From contig JAHLWS010000070.1 in assembly GCA_019057795.1 (NCBI GenBank), positions 96,001 to 160,000 on the forward strand: DNA of 64,000 bases. The letters run 5' to 3'. Shown piece after piece: positions 5,986 through 22,026 of the stretch. Position 1 is the stretch's first letter. Each line of letters starts with the position of its first letter. This DNA comes from Promethearchaeota archaeon (GTDB lineage: Archaea > Asgardarchaeota > Lokiarchaeia > Sigyniarchaeales > SOKP01). The position numbers and the translations under genes are program-made. The notes under the pieces were generated by a model, which worked only from the letters and a program-made list of their open reading frames with translations, was not told the origin of the DNA and searched no databases.

Positions 5986-7716
5986 TCATTTATTTAGGAT
6001 ATGGGATTTAACATTAAGCGGAATATGTTTCCAAATAGGAAGATTTAAGATTAAATTGAAAAAGCGAATTCGATTCAATTTTTTTTTTAAAATAAAGTAA
6101 CTCCAGTTGTAAAATGCTAATTTATTAAAGAGATTCATTAGGTTCACACCAAATAGATTATATCTTGAAGTTAGAAAACTTGCTAAATATGCACCTAATC
6201 GTTTAGTTCGTGGGATTGATTCAGGATATACTGATTCTGATAGAGGTCTATTGAAAATTTCATAAATTGAAAAAATGGGTATAAGAATATCTAAATATTC
6301 ATTTACAATTCTATTGTAATCTGAACTCTCTAACGATAAAGCAGAAAGCTCATTTAATTTTTTTAAGGCAAGATTAAGTTGTTGTTCCTTAAAATAAAAC
6401 CACATAGTTCCCATAGTATCTCTTAATTTCACCAACTCGTCAATAATTTCCTTTTCTTTAAAAGAAAATGAGTTTTTTTTCTCGAAATGTGTTATATAAA
6501 GTAAAAATATTGAGTAAATAGGGGTATTATCAAATTCAGTTAAATTTTTATTTTCCTTGACCTCTTGGAGATCAATTTCTTTATTTGATATATTAAGGAT
6601 AGTATGAGTATATAATGGTGTTGTCCATAACATTCTCAAAATTTTTTCCATAAGTCGAATATGGAGCGTATATTCTTCAATTTTTGAAAATTTTTGAGAT
6701 CGTTTCAAACTAGGAATCGAAAAGGTTTTAGATTGATCGATTCTAAATTTAAATCTATCGATTCTTTTTAATTTATTAATTAATTCTTTTCTTTGTTTTT
6801 TATTTATGAAAATCTTTTCAATTAGCAACTTCTTTATTGATATTAACTCCTTTATGTAGGTATAGAAATCTACATTGTATTTTTTTACAATATAATCGTG
6901 CGTTATTAAAGGAATGCTTATAGTTTGTTTTTGGGTTTTAGTCTCAATACTCATTGCATGGTCCCCTATAGTATATGAAAATGTAATTCTTTCAAGAGTT
7001 TCTTCTAAACTAGAATATACACCTAACTTTTTTGGATCATGGGTGAAATAACCGTGCAAGAGAGTATCGATTCCTTTAAACTTATTATTTTCATATTCTG
7101 AAATTATAACAGATTCAAATTCACCCGGATGATGTCTTTTAATACCGTACCGTTTACCCACAAGAAAGATTGCTTGATTAGCTCTATGACATACAGTATG
7201 AGACCACCTAAACAATGGTTCTAATATTTTTCCAATTGTTAATAAATATCCATAAAATTCTGGTCCAAAATAGATAGGGAATCCAAAACCTCGAGATGTT
7301 GAAAATGTAAATTGGAAAACATTCCTTGTTTTCTCACCTTTTAAAAATCCGGGAAATTTATAGTGTAAAGCTAACCTGGGATAAAGTGCTCCCAAACCCA
7401 AATTCATCCACATTTCAAATAGAATTATGCTGTCAGGAAATTTAAATGAATCTTTTTTGATTAAGAAATCGTCTCTTGATGTGTTTGACGCAGTTGGAAT
7501 AGCATAGAGCCAATCTTTATTGCTTTCTAAAGGTTTTAGCCGGTTTTTATACCTTTTTACCAACAATCGTTTTTTCTGGTTTTGTACTATAGCTTTTTTA
7601 TAATAATAATTATTCAGAACTCTAAAAAGTGAAGTAATTTCTAGTATTTGTCTTTGAAGATCATGAGCTACTTTTACTCGAATAATTCCTGAATTCTTAT
7701 TTGAGGATTGCTGCAC
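5986..7716 (-). CDS. Hypothetical protein (576 aa)
   Basis: Long ORF with no recognised motif; GTG start. Confidence 0.75.
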   Translation of the reverse strand: MQQSSNKNSGIIRVKVAHDLQRQILEITSLFRVLNNYYYKKAIVQNQKKRLLVKRYKNRLKPLESNKDWLYAIPTASNTSRDDFLIKKDSFKFPDSIILFEMWMNLGLGALYPRLALHYKFPGFLKGEKTRNVFQFTFSTSRGFGFPIYFGPEFYGYLLTIGKILEPLFRWSHTVCHRANQAIFLVGKRYGIKRHHPGEFESVIISEYENNKFKGIDTLLHGYFTHDPKKLGVYSSLEETLERITFSYTIGDHAMSIETKTQKQTISIPLITHDYIVKKYNVDFYTYIKELISIKKLLIEKIFINKKQRKELINKLKRIDRFKFRIDQSKTFSIPSLKRSQKFSKIEEYTLHIRLMEKILRMLWTTPLYTHTILNISNKEIDLQEVKENKNLTEFDNTPIYSIFLLYITHFEKKNSFSFKEKEIIDELVKLRDTMGTMWFYFKEQQLNLALKKLNELSALSLESSDYNRIVNEYLDILIPIFSIYEIFNRPLSESVYPESIPRTKRLGAYLASFLTSRYNLFGVNLMNLFNKLAFYNWSYFILKKKLNRIRFFNLILNLPIWKHIPLNVKSHILNK

Positions 7717-7889: not shown

Positions 7890-8312
7890 TCAACTGGTCT
7901 TTCTTTTAGCGAATAAGGATTTTAACTCACCCATAATAGCCCCTCTTAAACTTACAGGGCTGGCTGGACGAGGTCCGCCAGGTCCGCCAGGTCCGTCAGG
8001 TCCTCCAGGTGGCCCTCCAGGTGGCCCTCCAGGCGGTGGTGGGGCGCTACTTGGAGCTGTAGGTGCTGCAATGACAGGAGCTGCCCCAGTTCCTCTCGTT
8101 CTAAGTGCCGAAACATCATTATTTATAGAATTGATTTGCGATTCTAATGTTGAAATTCTTTGACCAACAACCGCTAAAGATTGATCTACTAAATCTGGTA
8201 TTCTTAGAATCATTGACATCATTTTTTCAACAACATCGCCAAATGTATTTAACTTTTCTTCAAGAGGGGCTTTTCTTGTTTCTTGCATGAAATTTGCGAA
8301 TTCTTCGGCCAT
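7890..8312 (-). CDS. Coiled-coil + poly-proline + C-terminal amphipathic/basic helix protein (candidate actin regulator)
   Basis: Heptad region, then APPPPGGPPGGPPGGP, then RGAIMGELKSLFAKRK. The ORF is solid; the function is inferred. Confidence 0.75.
   Translation of the reverse strand: MAEEFANFMQETRKAPLEEKLNTFGDVVEKMMSMILRIPDLVDQSLAVVGQRISTLESQINSINNDVSALRTRGTGAAPVIAAPTAPSSAPPPPGGPPGGPPGGPDGPGGPGGPRPASPVSLRGAIMGELKSLFAKRKTS
7972..8044 (-). repeat. GC-rich 9-12 bp coding tandem repeat (Pro/Gly)
   Basis: ggtccgcca and ggtggccctcca units on the + strand encode PPGG/GPG repeats. Confidence 0.8.
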
Positions 8313-8455
8313 TTTAATCTCTCTAATTTTATTAATAACGAACTTTCTTGTTAATTTTCTAGTAATAATATATTTGAACTATTTAATAAATTTAAGCTCA
8401 TACAAATTATAACTTAATTTAAAAAAAAATTATAAAAAAATATAAGGTTTTTTAC

Positions 8456-9088
8456 TTAACTAGCCTTGTTGACGGAGTTTTTTAAATTAACCCAGAGATC
8501 ATCCACTTCATTCCTAACTTGTAAAAATTGATTAATTTTTTTTAATAGTACATCCCTTGCACGATCAAAATCTCTTTGGGAGTCATTCAATTCAGATTCC
8601 AATATTTTTATCTTTTCTCCTTCGATCAAATCGTTTTTCTTTTTTTCGACAGATAACGCTTTTTTAATAACAACGCTTCTTTTACTGGCTACTTCGGCCA
8701 ACGCTGTAGCAAATTCATATTTTTTTTCTACTAAATAATCTTTTTTTACTGCGAGGTCTTTAATCGAATCTATGTACTTGTTATTTATTTCGATATATTC
8801 ATCATTTTTATGGATGATTTCCTGAAAATATTTTACCTCCTCGTCTTTGATATTTGATCTTCTCTCTCTTACTAGCGTTTGCATTTGCTTTAATACATCT
8901 CTAAACATCCTATTGACCATATCTCGTGTAAGATTTACTTTTCTCAAGTTATCAGCGTATTTTTTTTGAGAATCGATTAATGTAGTCTGATTTTTCGCTA
9001 ATTTTTTTATTTGGCTTACTAATTCTTTTTCCATGCTTGCTAATTCAAGCTCATCTTCATGTGTTATAATTGGGCTCATTTCAATCAA
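8456..9088 (-). CDS. All-helical coiled-coil protein, BAR-domain-like
   Basis: About 205 aa, almost no Pro or Gly, three long helices; alternative ATG at 9079. The fold is inferred. Confidence 0.65.
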   Translation of the reverse strand: MIEMSPIITHEDELELASMEKELVSQIKKLAKNQTTLIDSQKKYADNLRKVNLTRDMVNRMFRDVLKQMQTLVRERRSNIKDEEVKYFQEIIHKNDEYIEINNKYIDSIKDLAVKKDYLVEKKYEFATALAEVASKRSVVIKKALSVEKKKNDLIEGEKIKILESELNDSQRDFDRARDVLLKKINQFLQVRNEVDDLWVNLKNSVNKAS

Positions 9089-9173
9089 ATCAAAATAGTA
9101 TTGATTTATAATAAATTACGATATAATTCTTATGTAAATTCATTATTTTAATTTTTAGTCTTTTTATTTCTTA

Positions 9174-10211
9174 CTATCTATAAGGAAAAAAAGCAGTAAG
9201 AATATTATCTTTATAATTTGCTTTTATCACTTTAGCCTCAATATATTTTCCGATCAGTGCTTCGGAGAAAACGAGTGGTTTGTTCAATAATATTTTAATT
9301 CCGAGAGAATCGTTGATTTTCCCTATACACTCGTTTTTCCATCTTCCCCCGGAAACGATTTTTAATTTAATAAGGTCATCCTTCTTAAATTCTGATGGGG
9401 AGATTTTTGTTCTTTTATGAATACCAAAGTCTCTAGGTCCAAGTTTTAGTTTTATACCGTACTTTTTTTCTAATTTGGATAAGTGTAAATAAAAATAACC
9501 CCATGATTTCGGTCGAATTTTTTTTAATTTTCTACCTGTTTTGTAAATTAAATATTTTTGGATACCGATTTGAATTTGTTTCTCAGAATAACCTTCGCTT
9601 CTTAAATTAACGATCAACTTAATAATATCTTCTATATCTTTGTCATTTTCTCCTGGAAACCAAACTGGTGCAATTAAAACATGGATTTTAGAATCCAAGA
9701 GGGAATAAATATTATTTAAAAATTTACCAACATTAAATTTAGCACAATTGCATAAATAACAAGCCATTTCCTCCTTTAGGCTATTTAAGCTTACATTGAT
9801 TCGCGTCAGGTTGCTTTTTTTCAATTTATTAATAATATTTTTCGAGAGTAATACTCCATTGCTTTGCATTGAGATAGTTGTTACTCCTTCGATATCTGAG
9901 AGATTCTTTATTAAATTAAATAGTTCCCCGTATAACAACATTTCACCGTAGGGTGCCAGATGAATCTCGATGTTATAATTTCCTTTTATCGCTATGGCTT
10001 CTTTAACTTTATCTATTAAATAATTTGAATCTATTACGAAATTAGTGCTGTAATCGCCAGAACTGACGAAACAATACTTACAACGTAAATTACACTGTGT
10101 TAAGGGTTTAAGTTCAAGAATGTTGGTCCCTCTGTCAATTATCCCTAGAAAATCAACTCCAGCTAGTGGAATTTCCGAAGTTGTATCGATATATTTTATA
10201 TTTTCATTCAT
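9174..10211 (-). CDS. Radical SAM protein (archaeal COG2100-like), C-terminal TRAM/OB-like domain
   Basis: CNLRCKYC motif; GIIDRGTNILE N-terminal signature. Confidence 0.85.
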   Translation of the reverse strand: MNENIKYIDTTSEIPLAGVDFLGIIDRGTNILELKPLTQCNLRCKYCFVSSGDYSTNFVIDSNYLIDKVKEAIAIKGNYNIEIHLAPYGEMLLYGELFNLIKNLSDIEGVTTISMQSNGVLLSKNIINKLKKSNLTRINVSLNSLKEEMACYLCNCAKFNVGKFLNNIYSLLDSKIHVLIAPVWFPGENDKDIEDIIKLIVNLRSEGYSEKQIQIGIQKYLIYKTGRKLKKIRPKSWGYFYLHLSKLEKKYGIKLKLGPRDFGIHKRTKISPSEFKKDDLIKLKIVSGGRWKNECIGKINDSLGIKILLNKPLVFSEALIGKYIEAKVIKANYKDNILTAFFPYR

Positions 10212-10229
10212 TGTCGAAATTTTTCTTAT

Positions 10230-11303
10230 TTACATTTTATACCTTAAAATAGCAATCAGAGATCCTAAATCAATAATCTGTTGTCCTGTCGGGTGTTCAC
10301 TGTTTAGAATATGAACTCTACCACCAATTTTTTCAACTCCATTAATAATACTTTCGATTTTTAATTTTTGTTCTTTTGAGGCACCTCTAATTAAAATATC
10401 AGCACAAAATAATTCCTTTACAGCACCTTTTTCTGTTGCATTTGAAATCTCGTCAAAACCAATAGCAATAATATCTGAGTCTGTACTAAATAATTGTAAT
10501 ATTTCTTCAATTTTTTCTGTTTCCTGTAATATTTTTACATTTTTTTTTAAAATTTTTAACTCTTTTGATTTTAAAGTCTCCAAAATAGCACTTTCAGTTC
10601 CGGAGCTGGCTTGAATGTTATAAATTTTTGGTAGATATGTAGACTGTGTTCTTTCTTTAAGAAATTGATTGAAATGAACCTTTGTACTACCAGGCCCACA
10701 TATAACTAATGTATTTATTTTTGTATTCTTTATATTTTCGTCGATAAGCCTAAGGATATCACTATAAAATTCTTCGTACGCTTTATTTCTATAAGATTGT
10801 TCGTATCTTTTACCAGGAATATTTTTTTTTATAGTAGCTATTCTTTTATGACTGAAATTTGTTATTAGAGAGATTGTAGCTAACCCCGTCTCGATTGCAA
10901 TTATTAACATTATAAAATCAGTTTCGAATCTTGACGATTCCTTAAGACGTTTTATTTCGCTCTTTAACCACTTCTCTTTATTTATTGTTAGTTTTTGGTT
11001 AGGTTCAATATTAAAAGTGTGATATGTTCCAAAAGTTACTAAATCCTCCGGACCCTCTATAATAGTACCTTTTACTCTTAATCTATTTGAAAATTCATGA
11101 AAAGCGACAGATTCAACTTTTAATTTCAAGTACATTGGTTTTCTTTCTCCTTTAGAACCTTCCTTTAAAACAACTCTTCTATATGTTCGTGCTAAAATTT
11201 TATCATTTTTAGCTATTATGTTATAGAGAGTCCATAGATCGTTTAAGATCTCTGTTTTAACTGTAATAACTTCCTTCTTTTTATCTATTTCCAGAATTTT
11301 CAT
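10230..11303 (-). CDS. pelA: mRNA surveillance/ribosome rescue protein pelota
   Basis: DLWTLYNII, FHEFSNRLRVKG, GTYHT, IPGK, G.LIAILRY motifs. Confidence 0.95.
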   Translation of the reverse strand: MKILEIDKKKEVITVKTEILNDLWTLYNIIAKNDKILARTYRRVVLKEGSKGERKPMYLKLKVESVAFHEFSNRLRVKGTIIEGPEDLVTFGTYHTFNIEPNQKLTINKEKWLKSEIKRLKESSRFETDFIMLIIAIETGLATISLITNFSHKRIATIKKNIPGKRYEQSYRNKAYEEFYSDILRLIDENIKNTKINTLVICGPGSTKVHFNQFLKERTQSTYLPKIYNIQASSGTESAILETLKSKELKILKKNVKILQETEKIEEILQLFSTDSDIIAIGFDEISNATEKGAVKELFCADILIRGASKEQKLKIESIINGVEKIGGRVHILNSEHPTGQQIIDLGSLIAILRYKM

Positions 11304-11443
11304 TTAAATTATCAAACTCCAAATTATAAATTTAAGATATATAATTAAGTATAGTATAAATCTAAAGACTAACTATCTAAGGTTTGATATATTAGACAAA
11401 ATAAAGAAAAAAATAATAAAATACGACAAAGACAAAAAATTTA

Positions 11444-11596
11444 TTATTTTGCTCCTAAGGCTTCTTTGACCTTTTCTAATTCTTCCATTCGTTTCTTTTT
11501 CTCTTCTTCACGTTTTTTGAGGTCTTCTTCGTCAACCTTTTGGAGCGAAACACCTTTTTTGATTTCTTCTTTTAGTTCTTTACCTACGGGCGTCAT
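11444..11596 (-). CDS. 50-aa microprotein with WH2-like motif and charged helix
   Basis: MTPVGKELKEEIKKGVSLQKVDEEDLKKREEEKKKRMEELEKVKEALGAK*. ATG start, tandem TAA TAA stops, purine-rich coding bias, fills the intergenic gap; below the ORF-track cutoff. Confidence 0.75.
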   Translation of the reverse strand: MTPVGKELKEEIKKGVSLQKVDEEDLKKREEEKKKRMEELEKVKEALGAK

Positions 11597-11704: not shown

Positions 11705-12151
11705 TTAAATCTTCAAAATCATTAAATAAGCGCTTTTCTGTTGTCGGTAATAGTTCTCTATTTTCTGTCCAATTTGGAACCCAAATTTTTGATACAACCA
11801 AATGGCAACTTTATTTTTAGAGTTCACATTTAAAACTATTACTTCAATATTGTTCATTTCTTTTATTTTGTTTAAAGTATATTTTAATAGATGAGATCCA
11901 TATCCTTTATTCTGATATTGTTTACTAATAAGCAAATTAATTAAATTTACTCTACCTTCTCGATCTTGAATAACAATAATGAATCCAACAATTTCATTTG
12001 AACCATCATCATTTATCAACTTAAAAAAGAAAGTGTTATTTACGATAAGATTGAGAATTGAATTTTTAGAAAAAGCATCTTTCTTGAAAGTATTACTTTC
12101 CAATTTGAATATTTCATCTAAATCCTTAAGACTAACAGTGTTTATTCTCAT
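11705..12151 (-). CDS. rimI: GNAT N-acetyltransferase, RimI/Ard1 family
   Basis: YQNKGYGS acetyl-CoA motif, LNV..N..A..LY.KFGF, NYY. Confidence 0.85.
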   Translation of the reverse strand: MRINTVSLKDLDEIFKLESNTFKKDAFSKNSILNLIVNNTFFFKLINDDGSNEIVGFIIVIQDREGRVNLINLLISKQYQNKGYGSHLLKYTLNKIKEMNNIEVIVLNVNSKNKVAIWLYQKFGFQIGQKIENYYRQQKSAYLMILKI

Positions 12152-15420: not shown

Positions 15421-16152
15421 TTGATTATTATTCTTCACAATGTTTACCTAATATCAAATTTTACGGGCATTTGTTTAGTTCATAGGAAGTATGGTACTAT
15501 AGAGTTTAACCAAGATTTAGTATCTGGTTTTTTAACAGCATTAAAAGATTTTTCAGTGGAGTTCTCGAAAGGATCGGGCGAATTGAAAATCATTGATATG
15601 CAAATATTTTATCTCCTTCTTGTTTTTAAGGAAGGAATCCTGTGCACAGCAGCAGCTGATAAAAATGATGATGCTAAAATCACCCATAAAGTTCTTAGTG
15701 AGATTATCGATAAATTCCTGGAAAAGTATGGAAACCTAATGGACTGGTCAGGAGATGTTAGGATGTTCAAAGGTTTTGATAATGTTATGGATGTTATGCT
15801 AAAGGACGGTCATGTGGCAGAAATTCCCTTAAAGATTCCCATCTTGAAGATATTTGAGAAAGATTTTGTAAAATCACGGAAGCAGATCGCTAAAAAAGGA
15901 CTAGTATTGTCAGAAGAGGATTTAAGGGACGCTCAGAACCAGAAACCAAAGTGGACATCAAAGCGACTTCCCCACCAAGTAATTGCACAAGGATTTCTTG
16001 ACAAAAAGGTCTACAAGATTGCTCATTTAGCCGATGGCTTTCACACTATTTCGGATATCGCGGAGGAAGCAGGGGTACCACAATCAGAGATAAATGTAAT
16101 GATCGATGATCTGGACGATTTAGGGCTTTTAAAGTTTATCGATATTAAATAA
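15421..16152 (+). CDS. Longin-like domain protein with C-terminal winged helix
   Basis: G.CL..R.Y, DLVSGFLTAL..F, F.EKY longin pattern; C-terminal DG..TISDIAEE...L.DLGL HTH. Confidence 0.7.
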   Translation: MIIILHNVYLISNFTGICLVHRKYGTIEFNQDLVSGFLTALKDFSVEFSKGSGELKIIDMQIFYLLLVFKEGILCTAAADKNDDAKITHKVLSEIIDKFLEKYGNLMDWSGDVRMFKGFDNVMDVMLKDGHVAEIPLKIPILKIFEKDFVKSRKQIAKKGLVLSEEDLRDAQNQKPKWTSKRLPHQVIAQGFLDKKVYKIAHLADGFHTISDIAEEAGVPQSEINVMIDDLDDLGLLKFIDIK

Positions 16153-16322
16153 GCAGTATTGTTTTTCTTTTAATCTAATTTCAGGAAAGAAGAAATTGGG
16201 TTTAATTTTAAATTCCTTATCATATTTAAAAAAAAACTTCGATAAGAATTTTTAAACTATATCTTGTTTTTAAAAGTCGTAAACATAAAATTTATGAAAA
16301 TAATTTCACTTATTTAGTTAGT

Positions 16323-17795
16323 ATGAATGTGATTAAGATTGATGAGAACATTTACGAAATACCGCCAAAAACTTTAATGGCGCGTGTAGAAGGCAAAATC
16401 GCGAAGTTTCAAATGAAAGTGCCGGTACATATTTATGCGAACGAGTACATATTGGAAAAGATCAAGAACGACAGAACGCTTGATCAGATTAGCAACGTCG
16501 CTTGCCTTCCAGGAATACAGAAGCATGCAATTGCGCTCTCCGATGCCCATCAAGGATATGGATTTTGTATAGGCGGCGTTGCTGGAACTGACGCCGATTC
16601 GGGTATGATTTCGCCTGGGGGTGTAGGGTACGACATAAATTGCGGCGTAAATTTGTTGAAAACATCATTAAACCTTAAAGACATCAATAGCTCAATTCCC
16701 AGTTTATTAAACGTTATTTTTAAGAATATACCATCAGGTTTAGGAAGTAAAGGTAAATTAAATATAAGTTATTCAGATTTAGATAATGTATTAGATAATG
16801 GTTTGAATTGGGCTTTAGACAATGGTTATGCGATCGAAGAGGATTTAGTACACTGTGAAGAAAACGGTTTTTTAAAGGATGCTAATTCAAAAATGGTTTC
16901 TCAGAAAGCTAAGCAGAGGGGGTTAAAGCAACTTGGTTCTTTAGGAAGTGGTAATCATTTTATAGAAATCCAGAAGGTTGATAAAATCTACAACGATTCT
17001 ATCGCAAAAAAATTAGGAATTTTTGATAAGGATCAAATAACAGTTATGGTTCATACAGGGTCGCGAGCTCTTGGCCATCAAGTATGCACAGATTCCTTAC
17101 GAAATGTCGAACAGGCAATGAAAAAATACAATATCAAAGTTCCTGATCGAGAATTAGCATGTGTACCAGCTGATACTCCCGAAGCACAAAATTACTTAAG
17201 TAGCATGGCGTGTGCTGCAAATTTTGGGTTCAACAACCGTCAATTAATTACCCATTGGTTAAGACAATCTTTTCAAGATTATTTGAGAAAGAGTTTAGAC
17301 GAGCTAGACTTTAAATTAATCTATGGTGTATGTCATAATATTTTAAAAATAGAGGAACACGAAGTTAATGGCAAAAAAATGAAATTAAATGTTCATAGGA
17401 AAGGAGCAACCAGAGCGTTTCCACCAGGACACCAAGATATACCGCAAGACTATAAAAGTATTGGTCAACCCGCTTTGATTCCGGGTACAATGGGATCAGC
17501 TTCCTACTTATGCGTTGGAAGGCCAAAAGCGATGGATCTCTCCTTTGGATCCACCGCTCATGGATCTGGTAGAGTAATGTCAAGATCTAAAGCTAAAAAA
17601 TTATATTGGGGTTCTCAAGTCAAAGAAGATTTAAAAAATAGAGGAATAATTGTAAAAGCTGCTTCACCTAAAATAATTGCCGAGGAAGCTCCAGGAGCAT
17701 ACAAAGATATAGATCAAGTAGTACAAGTAAGTCACGATCTTGGAATCGTAGAAAAAATTGTAAGGTTAGTTCCCATAGGGGTTGTAAAAGGTTAA
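16323..17795 (+). CDS. rtcB: RNA-splicing ligase RtcB
   Basis: DAHQGYGF, GYDINCG, GSGNHF, HTGSR, HRKGAT, HGSGR, EEAPGAYK. Confidence 0.97.
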   Translation: MNVIKIDENIYEIPPKTLMARVEGKIAKFQMKVPVHIYANEYILEKIKNDRTLDQISNVACLPGIQKHAIALSDAHQGYGFCIGGVAGTDADSGMISPGGVGYDINCGVNLLKTSLNLKDINSSIPSLLNVIFKNIPSGLGSKGKLNISYSDLDNVLDNGLNWALDNGYAIEEDLVHCEENGFLKDANSKMVSQKAKQRGLKQLGSLGSGNHFIEIQKVDKIYNDSIAKKLGIFDKDQITVMVHTGSRALGHQVCTDSLRNVEQAMKKYNIKVPDRELACVPADTPEAQNYLSSMACAANFGFNNRQLITHWLRQSFQDYLRKSLDELDFKLIYGVCHNILKIEEHEVNGKKMKLNVHRKGATRAFPPGHQDIPQDYKSIGQPALIPGTMGSASYLCVGRPKAMDLSFGSTAHGSGRVMSRSKAKKLYWGSQVKEDLKNRGIIVKAASPKIIAEEAPGAYKDIDQVVQVSHDLGIVEKIVRLVPIGVVKG

Positions 17796-17862
17796 GTTTT
17801 TATTCTATTTATTTTCAGAATAAAATTTTAAATTATATCATTATTCAAAAATCATTTTAAAG

Positions 17863-18300
17863 TTAAATATCAAATACTATATCAATTATGGTGCTTTTGC
17901 GTTTTTCTTCTATATTCATAAAGGAATAAGTTATAGCCTTAACTTCAATTCCTATTTCGTGCTTATCCGAATCGAATTTTTCACCTTTTAGAATAGCCTG
18001 CAACTTGTAATTATCATTGAATTTTTCAATTTTACTTACATAAATTTGACTAAAAACAAGCTCATCTACATCAAAAATATACAAAAATTCAGAGAGAAAA
18101 TCAAATAGAAGGGCTTCTTTATCCTCAGCCTTAATTGTTATTTTTTTTTCGATTTTAGGAGTTATTTTTTTTAAGTCTGGCGTTATTGTTGCCATTAAAC
18201 TATAAGCGGTTTGCGTAAAGGCTTCTTCTAATGATGGTCCCCAACTTCTTACCTGAACATCGGCAGTATGCTCTCTAAACTCAAATCCGGGTTTTTTCAT
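17863..18300 (-). CDS. Archease (RtcB cofactor)
   Basis: EHTADV, EVKAITY, C-terminal FDI; convergent with rtcB. Confidence 0.95.
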   Translation of the reverse strand: MKKPGFEFREHTADVQVRSWGPSLEEAFTQTAYSLMATITPDLKKITPKIEKKITIKAEDKEALLFDFLSEFLYIFDVDELVFSQIYVSKIEKFNDNYKLQAILKGEKFDSDKHEIGIEVKAITYSFMNIEEKRKSTIIDIVFDI

Positions 18301-20023: not shown

Positions 20024-21346
20024 ATGTTGACGAATCAAAACGATAATAACATTTATTCTTTTAATATTGATAAATTTTATCGAAACTACTTAAAAGGTCC
20101 AAATCTTTTTAGGAAGCGAGAGGCTCTCGAACCTTCATTCATTCCTGATGAATTACCACATCGAAACTCTGAGATTGAAAAGATTGCGGGTATAACTGCG
20201 TGTGCTTTAAAAGGGGATGTTCCACCCAATTTCTTATGTTATGGGATGACTGGAACGGGTAAAACTGCCACTGTTCGTTATGTTTCACAAAAATTAGCTC
20301 AACATTGCGCCAACAATCCTCCATGGTGGATATATATCAATTGTACTGTAGTTTCAACGCCTTATAGAATTCTAGCTCATATCTATAACACAATTGTCGG
20401 AAGAGAAAAAATCCCAGCGACAGGTTTGCCTAAAGATGTTATTCTTAAAAAATTGCTTGGTTTATTGGATCAAAAAGTTAAAAATAGCGTATGTTTTTTT
20501 GTTTTAGATGAAATAGATATCTTAATAGAGAAAAAAGGAGGAAATGAAATTCTTTATACTTTAACTAGACTTAATGAGAGCTTAGATTTATGTAGAACAA
20601 GTGTTATTGGAATCTCAAATAAACTAAAGTTTATGGAATATTTAGATTCAAGAGTTACATCGAATTTAGATCAAGAAGAACCGATTGTTTTTCACCCTTA
20701 TAATGCAAACGAATTGGCAGATATTCTAAAACAAAGAGCAAAGATTGCATTTCATGAAGGTATTATCGAAGAAGGGGTAATAAAGTTGTGTGCAGGGCTC
20801 GCTGCAAGGGAGCATGGGGATGCAAGAAAAGCACTACAATTACTAAGAAAAGCGGGAGAGGTTGCAGAAAGAAATCAAAATAAAAAGATTTTAGAAAAAC
20901 ATGTAGAAAATGCCCAAAAAGATATTGATAAGGATCACATTGTTGAATATATAATATCAATGCCACTTCAAGCTCAATTAACGTTAACAGCTATTTATTT
21001 ATTATCTAAATATACCCGAGAACACATAATAACTTCGGGAGACATTTACGAAGTTCATTCAGAACTTACAAATAAAATTCCGGGCGTGAAACAATTAACT
21101 CATAGAAGAATAAGTGATTATATTAATGAGTTAGCATTATCAGGTTTAATTACTGCCAACACGAGGTCTATGGGACATTATGGGCGTACTAAAATAATAA
21201 ATCTCGATATAGAAAGTGAGTTAGTAGAACGAGTTTTATCTCAAATTAAGAAAATACAGGATTATAAATTGTTAAATTACAAACCTATTTTACTTCAAAC
21301 TGATAAAGTCAAAGTAAAGAATATTGTTTTTAAAAAGTTAATTTAA
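20024..21346 (+). CDS. cdc6: Orc1/Cdc6 replication initiator
   Basis: LPHR, GMTGTGKT, VLDEID, GDARKAL, C-terminal winged helix G..GRT. Confidence 0.96.
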   Translation: MLTNQNDNNIYSFNIDKFYRNYLKGPNLFRKREALEPSFIPDELPHRNSEIEKIAGITACALKGDVPPNFLCYGMTGTGKTATVRYVSQKLAQHCANNPPWWIYINCTVVSTPYRILAHIYNTIVGREKIPATGLPKDVILKKLLGLLDQKVKNSVCFFVLDEIDILIEKKGGNEILYTLTRLNESLDLCRTSVIGISNKLKFMEYLDSRVTSNLDQEEPIVFHPYNANELADILKQRAKIAFHEGIIEEGVIKLCAGLAAREHGDARKALQLLRKAGEVAERNQNKKILEKHVENAQKDIDKDHIVEYIISMPLQAQLTLTAIYLLSKYTREHIITSGDIYEVHSELTNKIPGVKQLTHRRISDYINELALSGLITANTRSMGHYGRTKIINLDIESELVERVLSQIKKIQDYKLLNYKPILLQTDKVKVKNIVFKKLI

Positions 21347-22026
21347 CTTAAAAAATCCCAATTATTAATTTCATTAGTAATACTTTCAAGAAAAAATGAA
21401 GCCGATTTTTCATTTTTTTTCTTTAAAAGTAAAAATAACTTTGCTAAATGTTTACAGAATTTTTTGTTTTTAGCTCTATTAGTTTGGAAATCATGGCAAT
21501 TATGCTTAATGAATTTATCATTTATGGATATTTCAATATTATATGGAGCATCATTAGAGCCTTTAACTTCAGCTTTAATGATCTTACTCTTAGGATCGAA
21601 TTTAATTATATTAAATGCGCTATCTGATACGGTGACTGCTCTGTTTATAGTTCCTTTATCTAAAAACGCTTTTAATAGAGTATTAAACTTATTTAAATTA
21701 TTTTTATCAAAGTTATCTATTTCTTGTGTTTCCTTTTTGGAAGAACCGATTTTTTTTAAAATTTGAGCTTTTCTTTTTATGTGCCAATTCTTTAATTTTT
21801 GTTCTAAATTATGTGATAATTTAAACATATTGTTAGGGATTTCTATTAAAAGTTTGTTGTCAACAACCTTTTGTATGAATTGACTTGCGTCGTTAGGTGA
21901 AAAAAGGAATAATTCAAACGATAATTCGTATAGTAAGTCACTTAGAGATATCGATGGGAGCTCAATAATTTTCCAAATATATAAAACCATCTCAGAATTG
22001 TTATTTCTTGGGATTGCGAAGTTCAC
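21343..22026 (-). CDS. SWIM zinc-finger protein
   Basis: V.GS...PY...I.....I.HNCHDF...FCKH. Confidence 0.75.
   Translation of the reverse strand: MNFAIPRNNNSEMVLYIWKIIELPSISLSDLLYELSFELFLFSPNDASQFIQKVVDNKLLIEIPNNMFKLSHNLEQKLKNWHIKRKAQILKKIGSSKKETQEIDNFDKNNLNKFNTLLKAFLDKGTINRAVTVSDSAFNIIKFDPKSKIIKAEVKGSNDAPYNIEISINDKFIKHNCHDFQTNRAKNKKFCKHLAKLFLLLKKKNEKSASFFLESITNEINNWDFLS

Follow-up and report, generated by a model that had tools for sequence, protein, structure and literature searches.

A candidate WH2-like actin-binding unit and a neighbouring BAR-like/polyproline gene pair in Lokiarchaeia

Introduction

In the literature searched, profilins and gelsolins are the only established actin regulators of Asgard archaea, and WH2-type motifs are found only inside gelsolin linkers. 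The two-domain gelsolins of these archaea contain a WH2-like LKKT-type motif (PMC9433394), and a trypanosomatid profilin carries an inserted WH2-like helix (PMC10907219). These proteins are precedents for LKKT-like contacts in Asgard actin regulators and for a single polypeptide in which a profilin and a WH2-like helix can both work on the same actin monomer. Here we analyse positions 7,890 to 11,596 of a 64,000-nucleotide stretch of DNA (the window; positions 96,001 to 160,000 of contig JAHLWS010000070.1, C70 in our numbering) from the 4.95 Mb genome of a Loki-type Asgard archaeon (GCA_019057795.1). Three genes of interest encode a 50-residue microprotein with a WH2/beta-thymosin-like unit, a 210-residue BAR-like protein, and a 140-residue protein with a predicted coiled coil and a polyproline tract (hereafter polyPro protein). 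A sequence-only reading of this stretch had taken them for parts, fused in eukaryotic nucleation-promoting factors, that here may form one candidate actin-membrane remodelling module of separate small genes.

The explanation that we favour, and to which we give an even chance, is that the 3.7-kb stretch consists of two independent gene blocks that have become neighbours in one Lokiarchaeial family. The microprotein's unit would grip monomers of Lokiactin, and the other block (block A) would supply a membrane scaffold and a tether. The WH2-like unit, which is undescribed in the literature searched, is well, if indirectly, supported as a partner of actin, by fusions to profilin and the co-immunoprecipitation of a tandem relative with Lokiactin. 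The window's genome encodes Lokiactin itself (PF00022, 441.7 bits) as well as three other genes of the actin family.

The WH2-like unit

Nucleotide substitutions in the microprotein gene fall mostly at third codon positions (e.g., 4/3/25 and 10/2/27 at the three positions), and 19 codons show synonymous changes only, compared with 9-11 that are changed. This is the pattern of a coding frame under purifying selection. The protein carries LKEEIKKGVSLQKV. Its layout is a short helix, then G15-x-x-L18-x-K20-V21, then a charged helix with E32, K33, K35, R36, E39, L40 and K42. Across 14 aligned orthologues K20, V21, E32, R36 and K42 are invariant, and G15, L18, K33, K35, E39 and L40 nearly so. The microprotein is a single copy of a unit of about 44-50 residues, the front half of which is WH2-like. 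The unit is present in 63 of the 68 genomes of the window's family (f1) and in all seven of a sister family (f2). Outside these two families there is one weak match in 76 genomes of family f11 and none in the other families searched within the phylum. The microprotein is limited to one Lokiarchaeial order.

A loose WH2-type regular expression finds 59 matches in the 16,304 six-frame open reading frames (ORFs) of the window's genome, which is not beyond chance. Therefore, the case rests on conservation, profiles, fusions and co-immunoprecipitation, and not on the motif. Searched against 177,635 sequences of the PDB, the profile of the 14 orthologues has the tandem WH2 of N-WASP as its top match (3m3n_W, E=0.0011), followed by N-WASP 2vcp_D and MIM 2d1k_C. 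A profile built from 48 units again matches 3m3n_W and 2vcp_D, and in addition Spire (3ue5_B). The amphipathic helix and LKKV/LKKT-type motif at fixed spacing are found in the LKEEIKKGVSLQKV segment of the microprotein, which aligns column for column with LLDQIREGAQLKKV of N-WASP. In Pfam, WH2 is the second most frequent match of the 48 units (5/48), and the best single-unit WH2 E-value among the archaeal units scanned is 0.043. We also searched 1.84 billion representative proteins exhaustively with the unit profile (E<=1e-3) and obtained 88 matches in all. Among these are two bona fide WH2/VCA proteins, P0087 (Pfam WH2 5e-18; retrieved by the unit profile at E=9.2e-5) and P0089 (Pfam 9e-9; retrieved at E=1.4e-4). 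The WH2 likeness of the unit is specific and recurs over independent libraries, always under family thresholds.

Members of the sister family encode proteins of ~480-500 amino acids (aa) with about ten tandem copies of the unit, for example in Candidatus Harpocratesius repetitus, Promethearchaeum syntrophicum MK-D1 and Lokiarchaeum ossiferum. We did not find this long tandem-repeat form in the window's genome. For the tandem protein of Harpocratesius, WH2 is the sole Pfam match (E=0.07). Word-indexed homologue searches returned few tandem proteins, every one annotated as 'hypothetical'. The AF2 model of the tandem protein (pLDDT 53) has no compact fold, and its predicted helices, each of ~36 residues, are separated by linkers of nine residues that coincide exactly with G-x-x-L-x-K-(V/I)-D. 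Such a model fits a string of binding motifs, and proves nothing. The tandem-repeat gene is flanked by genes for a thermosome subunit and a large methyltransferase-like protein in four genera.

Other proteins join one, two or four copies of the unit to an Asgard profilin (five examples: L104, L105, P0028, P0041 and P0018). The profilin domain of these fusions is genuine, as indicated by matches to PDB entries 5zza, 5yed/5yee, 5zzb and 7pbh (E 2e-9 to 7e-5). As a separate observation, the unit very often precedes a ribbon-helix-helix (RHH; CopG/NikA-like) domain and a short coiled coil (L107, L108, L112, L050 and L114). The layouts seen include leucine-rich repeat (LRR)-unit-RHH, Ras-like-GTPase-unit-RHH and RHH-unit, and there are four more examples among the matches of the exhaustive search (P0059, P0070, P0072 and P0078). 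These proteins could be an actin-sensing DNA-binding module, or they could argue for the unit as a general docking element.

Lokiactin co-immunoprecipitation data for L. ossiferum are available in Supplemental Table 2 of a preprint (bioRxiv 10.1101/2025.11.30.690169) of a paper published since (Nature 2026, PMC13716822). The masses in the table are monoisotopic (2DGel2, computed as 29.894 kDa, is listed at 29.89). The tandem protein of L. ossiferum has 488 aa and a computed mass of 56.414 kDa, and its gene lies at 4.726 Mb of CP104013.1. Interpolation between the two two-domain gelsolin genes gives it a gene index of 4085.7. We identify it as GNAMCCOK_04085 because the listed mass (56.41 kDa), the interpolated index and the third neighbour, 04082 (47.31 kDa), fit. 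In the table this ten-repeat protein has a log2 Actin/IgG ratio of 4.53 (adjusted p 0.0021, 44 peptides, 70.5% coverage; bioRxiv 10.1101/2025.11.30.690169). It is second among the listed non-contaminants and stands above Lokiactin itself, at 4.44. The tandem protein is not mentioned in the main text of PMC13716822. The top listed non-contaminant is another protein, GNAMCCOK_04250 (20.61 kDa, log2 5.11, adjusted p 0.0015), which is missing from the preprint's named proteins (Supplemental Table 3, bioRxiv 10.1101/2025.11.30.690169).

Most likely, the unit binds Lokiactin monomers in the manner of WH2/beta-thymosin peptides on actin. Its short amphipathic helix would enter the barbed-face cleft, G-x-x-L-x-K-V would run along the surface, and the charged helix would follow. 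With one low-affinity unit, the microprotein may be a monomer-binding or buffering factor, and its relatives, with ten tandem copies or a fused profilin, would be multivalent. The proposed WH2 likeness of the microprotein is upheld by the profile matches to WH2 structures, though not as membership of the WH2 family, and the link of its unit to actin is supported indirectly, by the profilin fusions and the co-immunoprecipitation of the tandem relative.

The BAR-like and polyproline proteins

The alignment of orthologues suggests that the BAR-like protein starts at the ATG at position 9079. Its AF2 model, built with 15 orthologues, has a pLDDT of 92.2 and a pTM of 0.77, with helices at residues 10-75, 82-152 and 157-209. 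The predicted structure thus has the three long antiparallel helices, over about 200 aa, of the BAR monomer fold. BAR domains dominate the list of Foldseek matches to this model, none at E<=1e-3. VIA-align comparisons, run on the Foldseek hits and on 48,161 representative chains, place arfaptin first (Z 13.6, root-mean-square deviation 5.0, 186 residues aligned), followed by SNX1, Lsp1, SNX5, ACAP4 and APPL1 (Z 12.3-11.3), so that BAR domains fill the top six ranks. No BAR sequence family was matched at E<=10 among the 25 Pfam families most often matched by the 15 orthologues, and the PDB profile search gave SNX1 at E=5.5 only. The assignment as BAR-like therefore stands on a confident three-helix model and its top structural matches, but not on a sequence family. 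We also considered an ESCRT-III-like identity and rejected it: among the 50 rows listed for the search of representative chains there is only one partial match to Shrub (Z 9.6, 109 residues, rank 31).

A probable role for the BAR-like protein is that of an abundant scaffold at the membrane. In the abundance-sorted proteome sheet of L. ossiferum, the orthologue GNAMCCOK_02568 (23.9 kDa) is about 46th and thus one of the most abundant proteins. The gene for this orthologue (C1:3020645-3021262) is located ~20 kb (~20 genes) from a pair formed by profilin-2 and the two-domain gelsolin-2 (GNAMCCOK_02587 and 02589, C1:3040124-3040639).

The polyPro protein consists of an N-terminal heptad region, a PPPPGGPPGGPPGG tract and a C-terminal SLRGAIMGELKSLFAKRK. 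Across four families, strong conservation is confined to the helical part at the N-terminus and to the tail. The consensus of the latter, P-x-S-L-(R/K)-x-x-I-M-x-E-L-K-x-L-(F/L)-x-K-R, has ~10 invariant positions; in our alignment P116, P119, S121, L122, I126, M127, E129, L130, K131, L133, K136 and R137 are invariant. The N-terminal part matches generic, mostly trimeric coiled coils only, and neither EVH1/WH1 nor any other family-specific N-terminal domain was identified in Pfam or NCBIfam. The C-terminus is basic (KRK), and we did not find an acidic/Trp Arp2/3-binding element there. Over the proline-rich part there is a weak NCBIfam match to BimA (E=0.11).

By hhalign, the tail can be aligned with the extended N-terminal helix that fusion-type units have (P=1.2e-4, 12 columns, probability 55%; L-R-x-x-I-M-x-E-L-K), which ties the polyPro protein loosely to the motif class of the unit. 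The tail matches the helix half of the WH2-like unit only. A PPPP/GPPGG tract is present. In two other families (genomes G026, G027 and G029) the coiled coil, proline-rich linker and tail follow an Arf/RagA-like GTPase domain. Separately, the window's genome encodes a 414-aa Arf/RagA-like GTPase (contig C75, positions 73886-75130; PF00025, 74 bits) that ends in a tail of the polyPro type (RSTVLNELKQLFEKKRK). This GTPase has a long helical N-terminal extension and a C-terminal coiled coil, without a proline tract, and BLASTP of the polyPro protein against it gave no significant similarity outside the tail.

The polyPro protein would be an oligomeric coiled coil with a flexible proline-rich arm and an invariant end helix, S-L-R-x-x-I-M-x-E-L-K-x-L-F-x-K-R. 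Its most likely role is that of a tether, with the helix offered to a shared partner, for which actin is the best guess. It had been read as a polyproline factor of the VASP or nucleation-promoting kind; a coiled coil, proline-rich arm and docking helix are present, but no domain that defines such factors was identified. A BAR-fold protein and a coiled-coil/polyproline tether are plausible, though putative, companions of the unit.

Gene content and synteny

The genes of the stretch and those around it are as follows.

7890-8312, minus strand: polyPro protein, 140 aa, predicted coiled coil, polyproline tract and conserved C-terminal docking helix (ORF, alignment, GTPase-fused long forms)
8456-9088, minus strand: BAR-like protein, 210 aa, predicted all helix, three-helix BAR-fold-like (ORF, AF2 model, structure matches)
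9174-10211, minus strand: radical SAM enzyme (PF04055, 76 bits)
10230-11303, minus strand: pelota, ribosome rescue (TIGR00111, 241.7 bits)
11444-11596, minus strand: microprotein, 50 aa, K/E-rich, with one putative WH2/beta-thymosin-like unit (ORF, codon pattern, profiles)
11705-12151, minus strand: RimI-like GNAT acetyltransferase (TIGR01575, 78 bits, cut-off of 86.4 not reached; PF00583, 55 bits)
15421-18300: longin/winged-helix-like protein, RtcB and archease (Pfam, synteny)

The layout that had been described, with three co-oriented candidates within 3.7 kb, the polyPro and BAR-like genes adjacent and the microprotein gene set apart from them by pelota and radical SAM, agrees with the ORF list, in which the five genes are all on the minus strand. 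The three candidates are genuine conserved genes, with orthologues in 40, 37 and 40 of the 41 related genomes examined. Pfam and NCBIfam scans assign no family to the microprotein, the BAR-like protein or the polyPro protein. TATA-like hexamers were identified 22-30 nt 5' of the genes for the polyPro protein, BAR-like protein, radical SAM enzyme, pelota and GNAT, and they are weak evidence for separate promoters given that the DNA is only ~29% GC.

Comparison across Asgard genomes separates the stretch into two blocks. In block B, the order GNAT (RimI-like)-microprotein-pelota-radical SAM is kept in f1 and in genera g5 and g10 of f2. The adjacency of microprotein and pelota is lost in family f4 and in genera g2 and g9. 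Radical SAM adjoins pelota in other families too, and it is a partner of pelota in the microprotein block and not of an actin module. In block A, the polyPro and BAR-like genes are neighbours in four families. In the other families, archease, the longin/winged-helix-like gene and RtcB lie directly on one side of the pair, with elf1 and a neighbouring eight-gene operon on the other. The direct flanking of the pair by these genes elsewhere (L084, L085, L090 and L091) shows an insertion of block B between longin/RtcB/archease and BAR-like/polyPro in the window's family.

The two blocks adjoin in f1 only, in at least nine genera, with the microprotein and polyPro genes mostly 3.1-3.6 kb (up to ~5 kb) apart. 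For genus g17, the sole well-assembled genome has all three genes, and the other assemblies break contigs at the locus. In three f2 genomes the microprotein gene is 55-110 kb from the pair. In L. ossiferum the distance is 240 kb, and the three genes are located at 2.63, 2.87 and 3.02 Mb. The polyPro and BAR-like genes are themselves apart in Harpocratesius, Promethearchaeum and L. ossiferum, and convergent in G026. Conserved linkage of the three genes was thus absent beyond f1, an outcome that the sequence-only reading had itself named as contrary evidence, and a single module of split nucleation-promoting parts is therefore not supported. The closeness of the three genes in the window's family should not be taken to indicate one system. 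A looser common involvement in actin and membrane biology is possible. As for the suggestion that three similarities point to one process, each survives to a different degree: the WH2-like unit has an indirect link to actin, and a shared module is not supported by linkage.

Several other genes of the window were noted. A 576-aa protein without a family match is encoded between elf1 and polyPro (5986-7716, minus strand); because polyPro directly adjoins elf1 in Harpocratesius and Promethearchaeum, this gene is a lineage-specific insertion. The 243-aa longin/winged-helix-like protein (15421-16149, plus strand) gives weak matches to longin (E=1.9e-4) and to MarR-like winged helices, and its gene is kept beside archease and RtcB in four families. 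The genome's top match to the thymosin model is a 227-aa protein encoded between Orc1/Cdc6 and the PolD small subunit (21343-22026, minus strand). The match is under the cut-off (E=0.045, 16.6 bits, at EIDNFDKNNLNKF) and is probably due to chance; the protein has a Cys/His cluster that by eye resembles a SWIM-type zinc finger.

Alternative explanations

A number of observations weigh against an actin-binding WH2-like unit and against the roles proposed for its companions. None of the archaeal proteins and units scanned reaches the gathering score of PF02205, the best being 13.3 bits (the tandem protein, E 0.07) compared with 23.1. The window's own microprotein has no match to any WH2 model, and the beta-thymosin model (PF01290) matches neither the microprotein, in the genome-wide scan, nor any of the 14 orthologues. 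Single-domain PDB scores of the unit are not significant alone (i-E 6-25), and aEF-1beta, Alba and designed TIM barrels score like WH2 structures in these profile searches. In the exhaustive search, P0090, a clear false positive, has the same E-value as true WH2 proteins. The charged helix, which is the best-conserved half of the unit, lacks a WH2 counterpart, and the conserved neighbours of the microprotein gene are translation-related. The unit is fused not only to profilin, but also to RHH, LRR, Ras-like GTPase, RING-type zinc finger and hexapeptide-repeat transferase domains; given such varied partners it may be a general docking module. In the table, enrichment with Lokiactin is only weak for GNAMCCOK_02436, the orthologue with one unit (69 aa and 8.24 kDa as annotated; log2 0.57, adjusted p 0.105, 5 peptides; bioRxiv 10.1101/2025.11.30.690169). 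Weak enrichment of one unit and strong enrichment of the tandem protein are compatible with low affinity of the former and ten-unit avidity of the latter, and are not positive evidence for the window's gene. The BAR-like orthologue GNAMCCOK_02568 is marginally enriched (log2 0.71, adjusted p 0.053; bioRxiv 10.1101/2025.11.30.690169). Among the rows listed, no orthologue of the polyPro protein was identified. Close behind the BAR matches of its model are designed bundles and SipB (Z ~11), in a Z range where helical bundles can agree by common arrangement. As for the polyPro protein, Loki profilins are reported not to bind the polyproline of VASP (PMC8410842).

Three other explanations take up some of these points. 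One is a split nucleation-promoting or elongation machine, in which the BAR-like protein would sit on the membrane, the polyPro protein would be a core like that of VASP or WASP, and the microprotein would supply the WH2 element. The grouping of the genes on one strand in f1 (within 3.7 kb in at least nine genera), the polyPro/BAR-like adjacency in four families and the motif common to the polyPro tail and the N-terminal helix of the unit are all in its favor, as is the fact that the arfaptins, the top BAR matches, bind Arf/Arl GTPases while polyPro paralogues carry Arf-like GTPases. Outside f1, however, the microprotein gene is unlinked to the pair, the pair is itself split or convergent in the four genomes named above, and the flanking genes are housekeeping genes (pelota, RtcB, archease, elf1), with no actin, profilin or gelsolin gene identified in the locus; we consider such a machine very unlikely. 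It is likewise highly improbable that the microprotein acts with pelota as a K/E-rich peptide of translation or the ribosome (TMA7-like or similar), its WH2 likeness being coincidental. The block B order kept across two families would fit this, as would the highly charged composition, with a K/R/E helix as the most conserved half, and the weak, non-significant enrichment listed for the single-unit orthologue. However, a scan of the genome with the TMA7 model (PF09072) finds nothing at E<=10, profilin is among the fusion partners of the unit, the tandem protein ranks among the top proteins of the Lokiactin co-immunoprecipitation, and pelota adjacency is lost in f4, g2 and g9.

The remaining possibility is that the unit and the polyPro tail are generic docking or linker helices for some other partner, or membrane binders, and that a sticky charged repeat accounts for the co-immunoprecipitation of the tandem protein. 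In one variant of this explanation the tail would be an amphipathic helix that targets the C-terminus to membranes; in another it would be a MIM of the ESCRT type, with MIT domains as its partners. Anchors of the MinD/FtsA type and MIM1 helices are amphipathic and basic-ended and follow a flexible linker, and the polyPro tail is likewise amphipathic, with a basic end, after a flexible linker. The many unrelated domains joined to the unit and the sub-threshold value of every WH2 score agree with this explanation. Nevertheless, the ~10 invariant positions of the tail over four families are more than simple lipid-binding helices usually retain, the repeated profilin fusions point to actin specifically, and the tandem protein, with its 44 listed peptides, has a ratio above that of actin itself; we therefore judge generic helices to be unlikely.

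Comparison with known systems

The favoured explanation, of two independent blocks with a Lokiactin-gripping unit in one of them, can be set beside several known protein families. The BAR domains of arfaptin, SNX1/SNX5, Lsp1/Pil1, ACAP and APPL are like the modelled 210-aa protein in their ~200 residues and three antiparallel helices, with 165-190 residues aligned at Z 11-13.6. They differ in that the 210-aa protein has no sequence-family match, and the likeness lies in the monomer model only. Its gene is other than those for Bar1 and Bar2 of the L. ossiferum paper. The C-terminal extensions of Asgard Arf/RagA-like GTPases resemble the coiled coil, linker and docking helix of the polyPro protein (three loci: L098, L099 and L101; phmmer 6e-11 to 4e-8), whereas the protein of the window has no GTPase domain and a far more proline-rich linker. 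Ena/VASP and the bacterial mimic BimA share with the polyPro protein an oligomerising coiled coil (predicted in the latter), FH1/VASP-like PPPPPG tracts, a terminal amphipathic helix and a basic end. The polyPro protein lacks EVH1, WH1 and an acidic/Arp2/3-binding element, the order of its parts is the reverse of that in VASP, and its tail has no LKKV.

The closest comparison is with WH2 and beta-thymosin (PF02205 and PF01290; N-WASP, WAVE, MIM and Spire; thymosin beta4 and ciboulot). As in these, an amphipathic helix is followed by G-x-x-L-x-K-V, and the unit also occurs as a free peptide of ~50 residues, in tandem arrays and beside proline-rich or profilin modules. It has no predicted fold when alone, and its profiles cross-match true WH2 domains. 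It differs in falling under every family cut-off, in its greater length (~44-50 aa), in a charged C-terminal helix that is absent from WH2, and in its confinement to one archaeal order; its actin binding is putative. It seems distinctly unlikely that eukaryotic WH2/beta-thymosin domains are truly related to the unit by descent or have it as their functional forerunner, with the polyPro protein as a VASP-like elongation tether that the abundant BAR-fold protein couples to membranes in the actin-filled protrusions. If true, Lokiarchaeial actin would have regulators of a third class, beside profilins and gelsolins: free binders of monomers, hybrids of profilin and WH2, and nucleator-like proteins with ten repeats. 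A free, repeated and profilin-fused WH2-like module would mean that a central element of actin assembly predates eukaryotes. The WH2-like unit, the BAR-fold protein and the polyPro tether are small, concrete candidates for the building of protrusions in cultured Lokiarchaeia. With respect to the two precedents, the motifs of Asgard gelsolin and trypanosomatid profilin sit inside folded domains, whereas the Lokiarchaeial unit is free-standing, repeated, or placed after a profilin.

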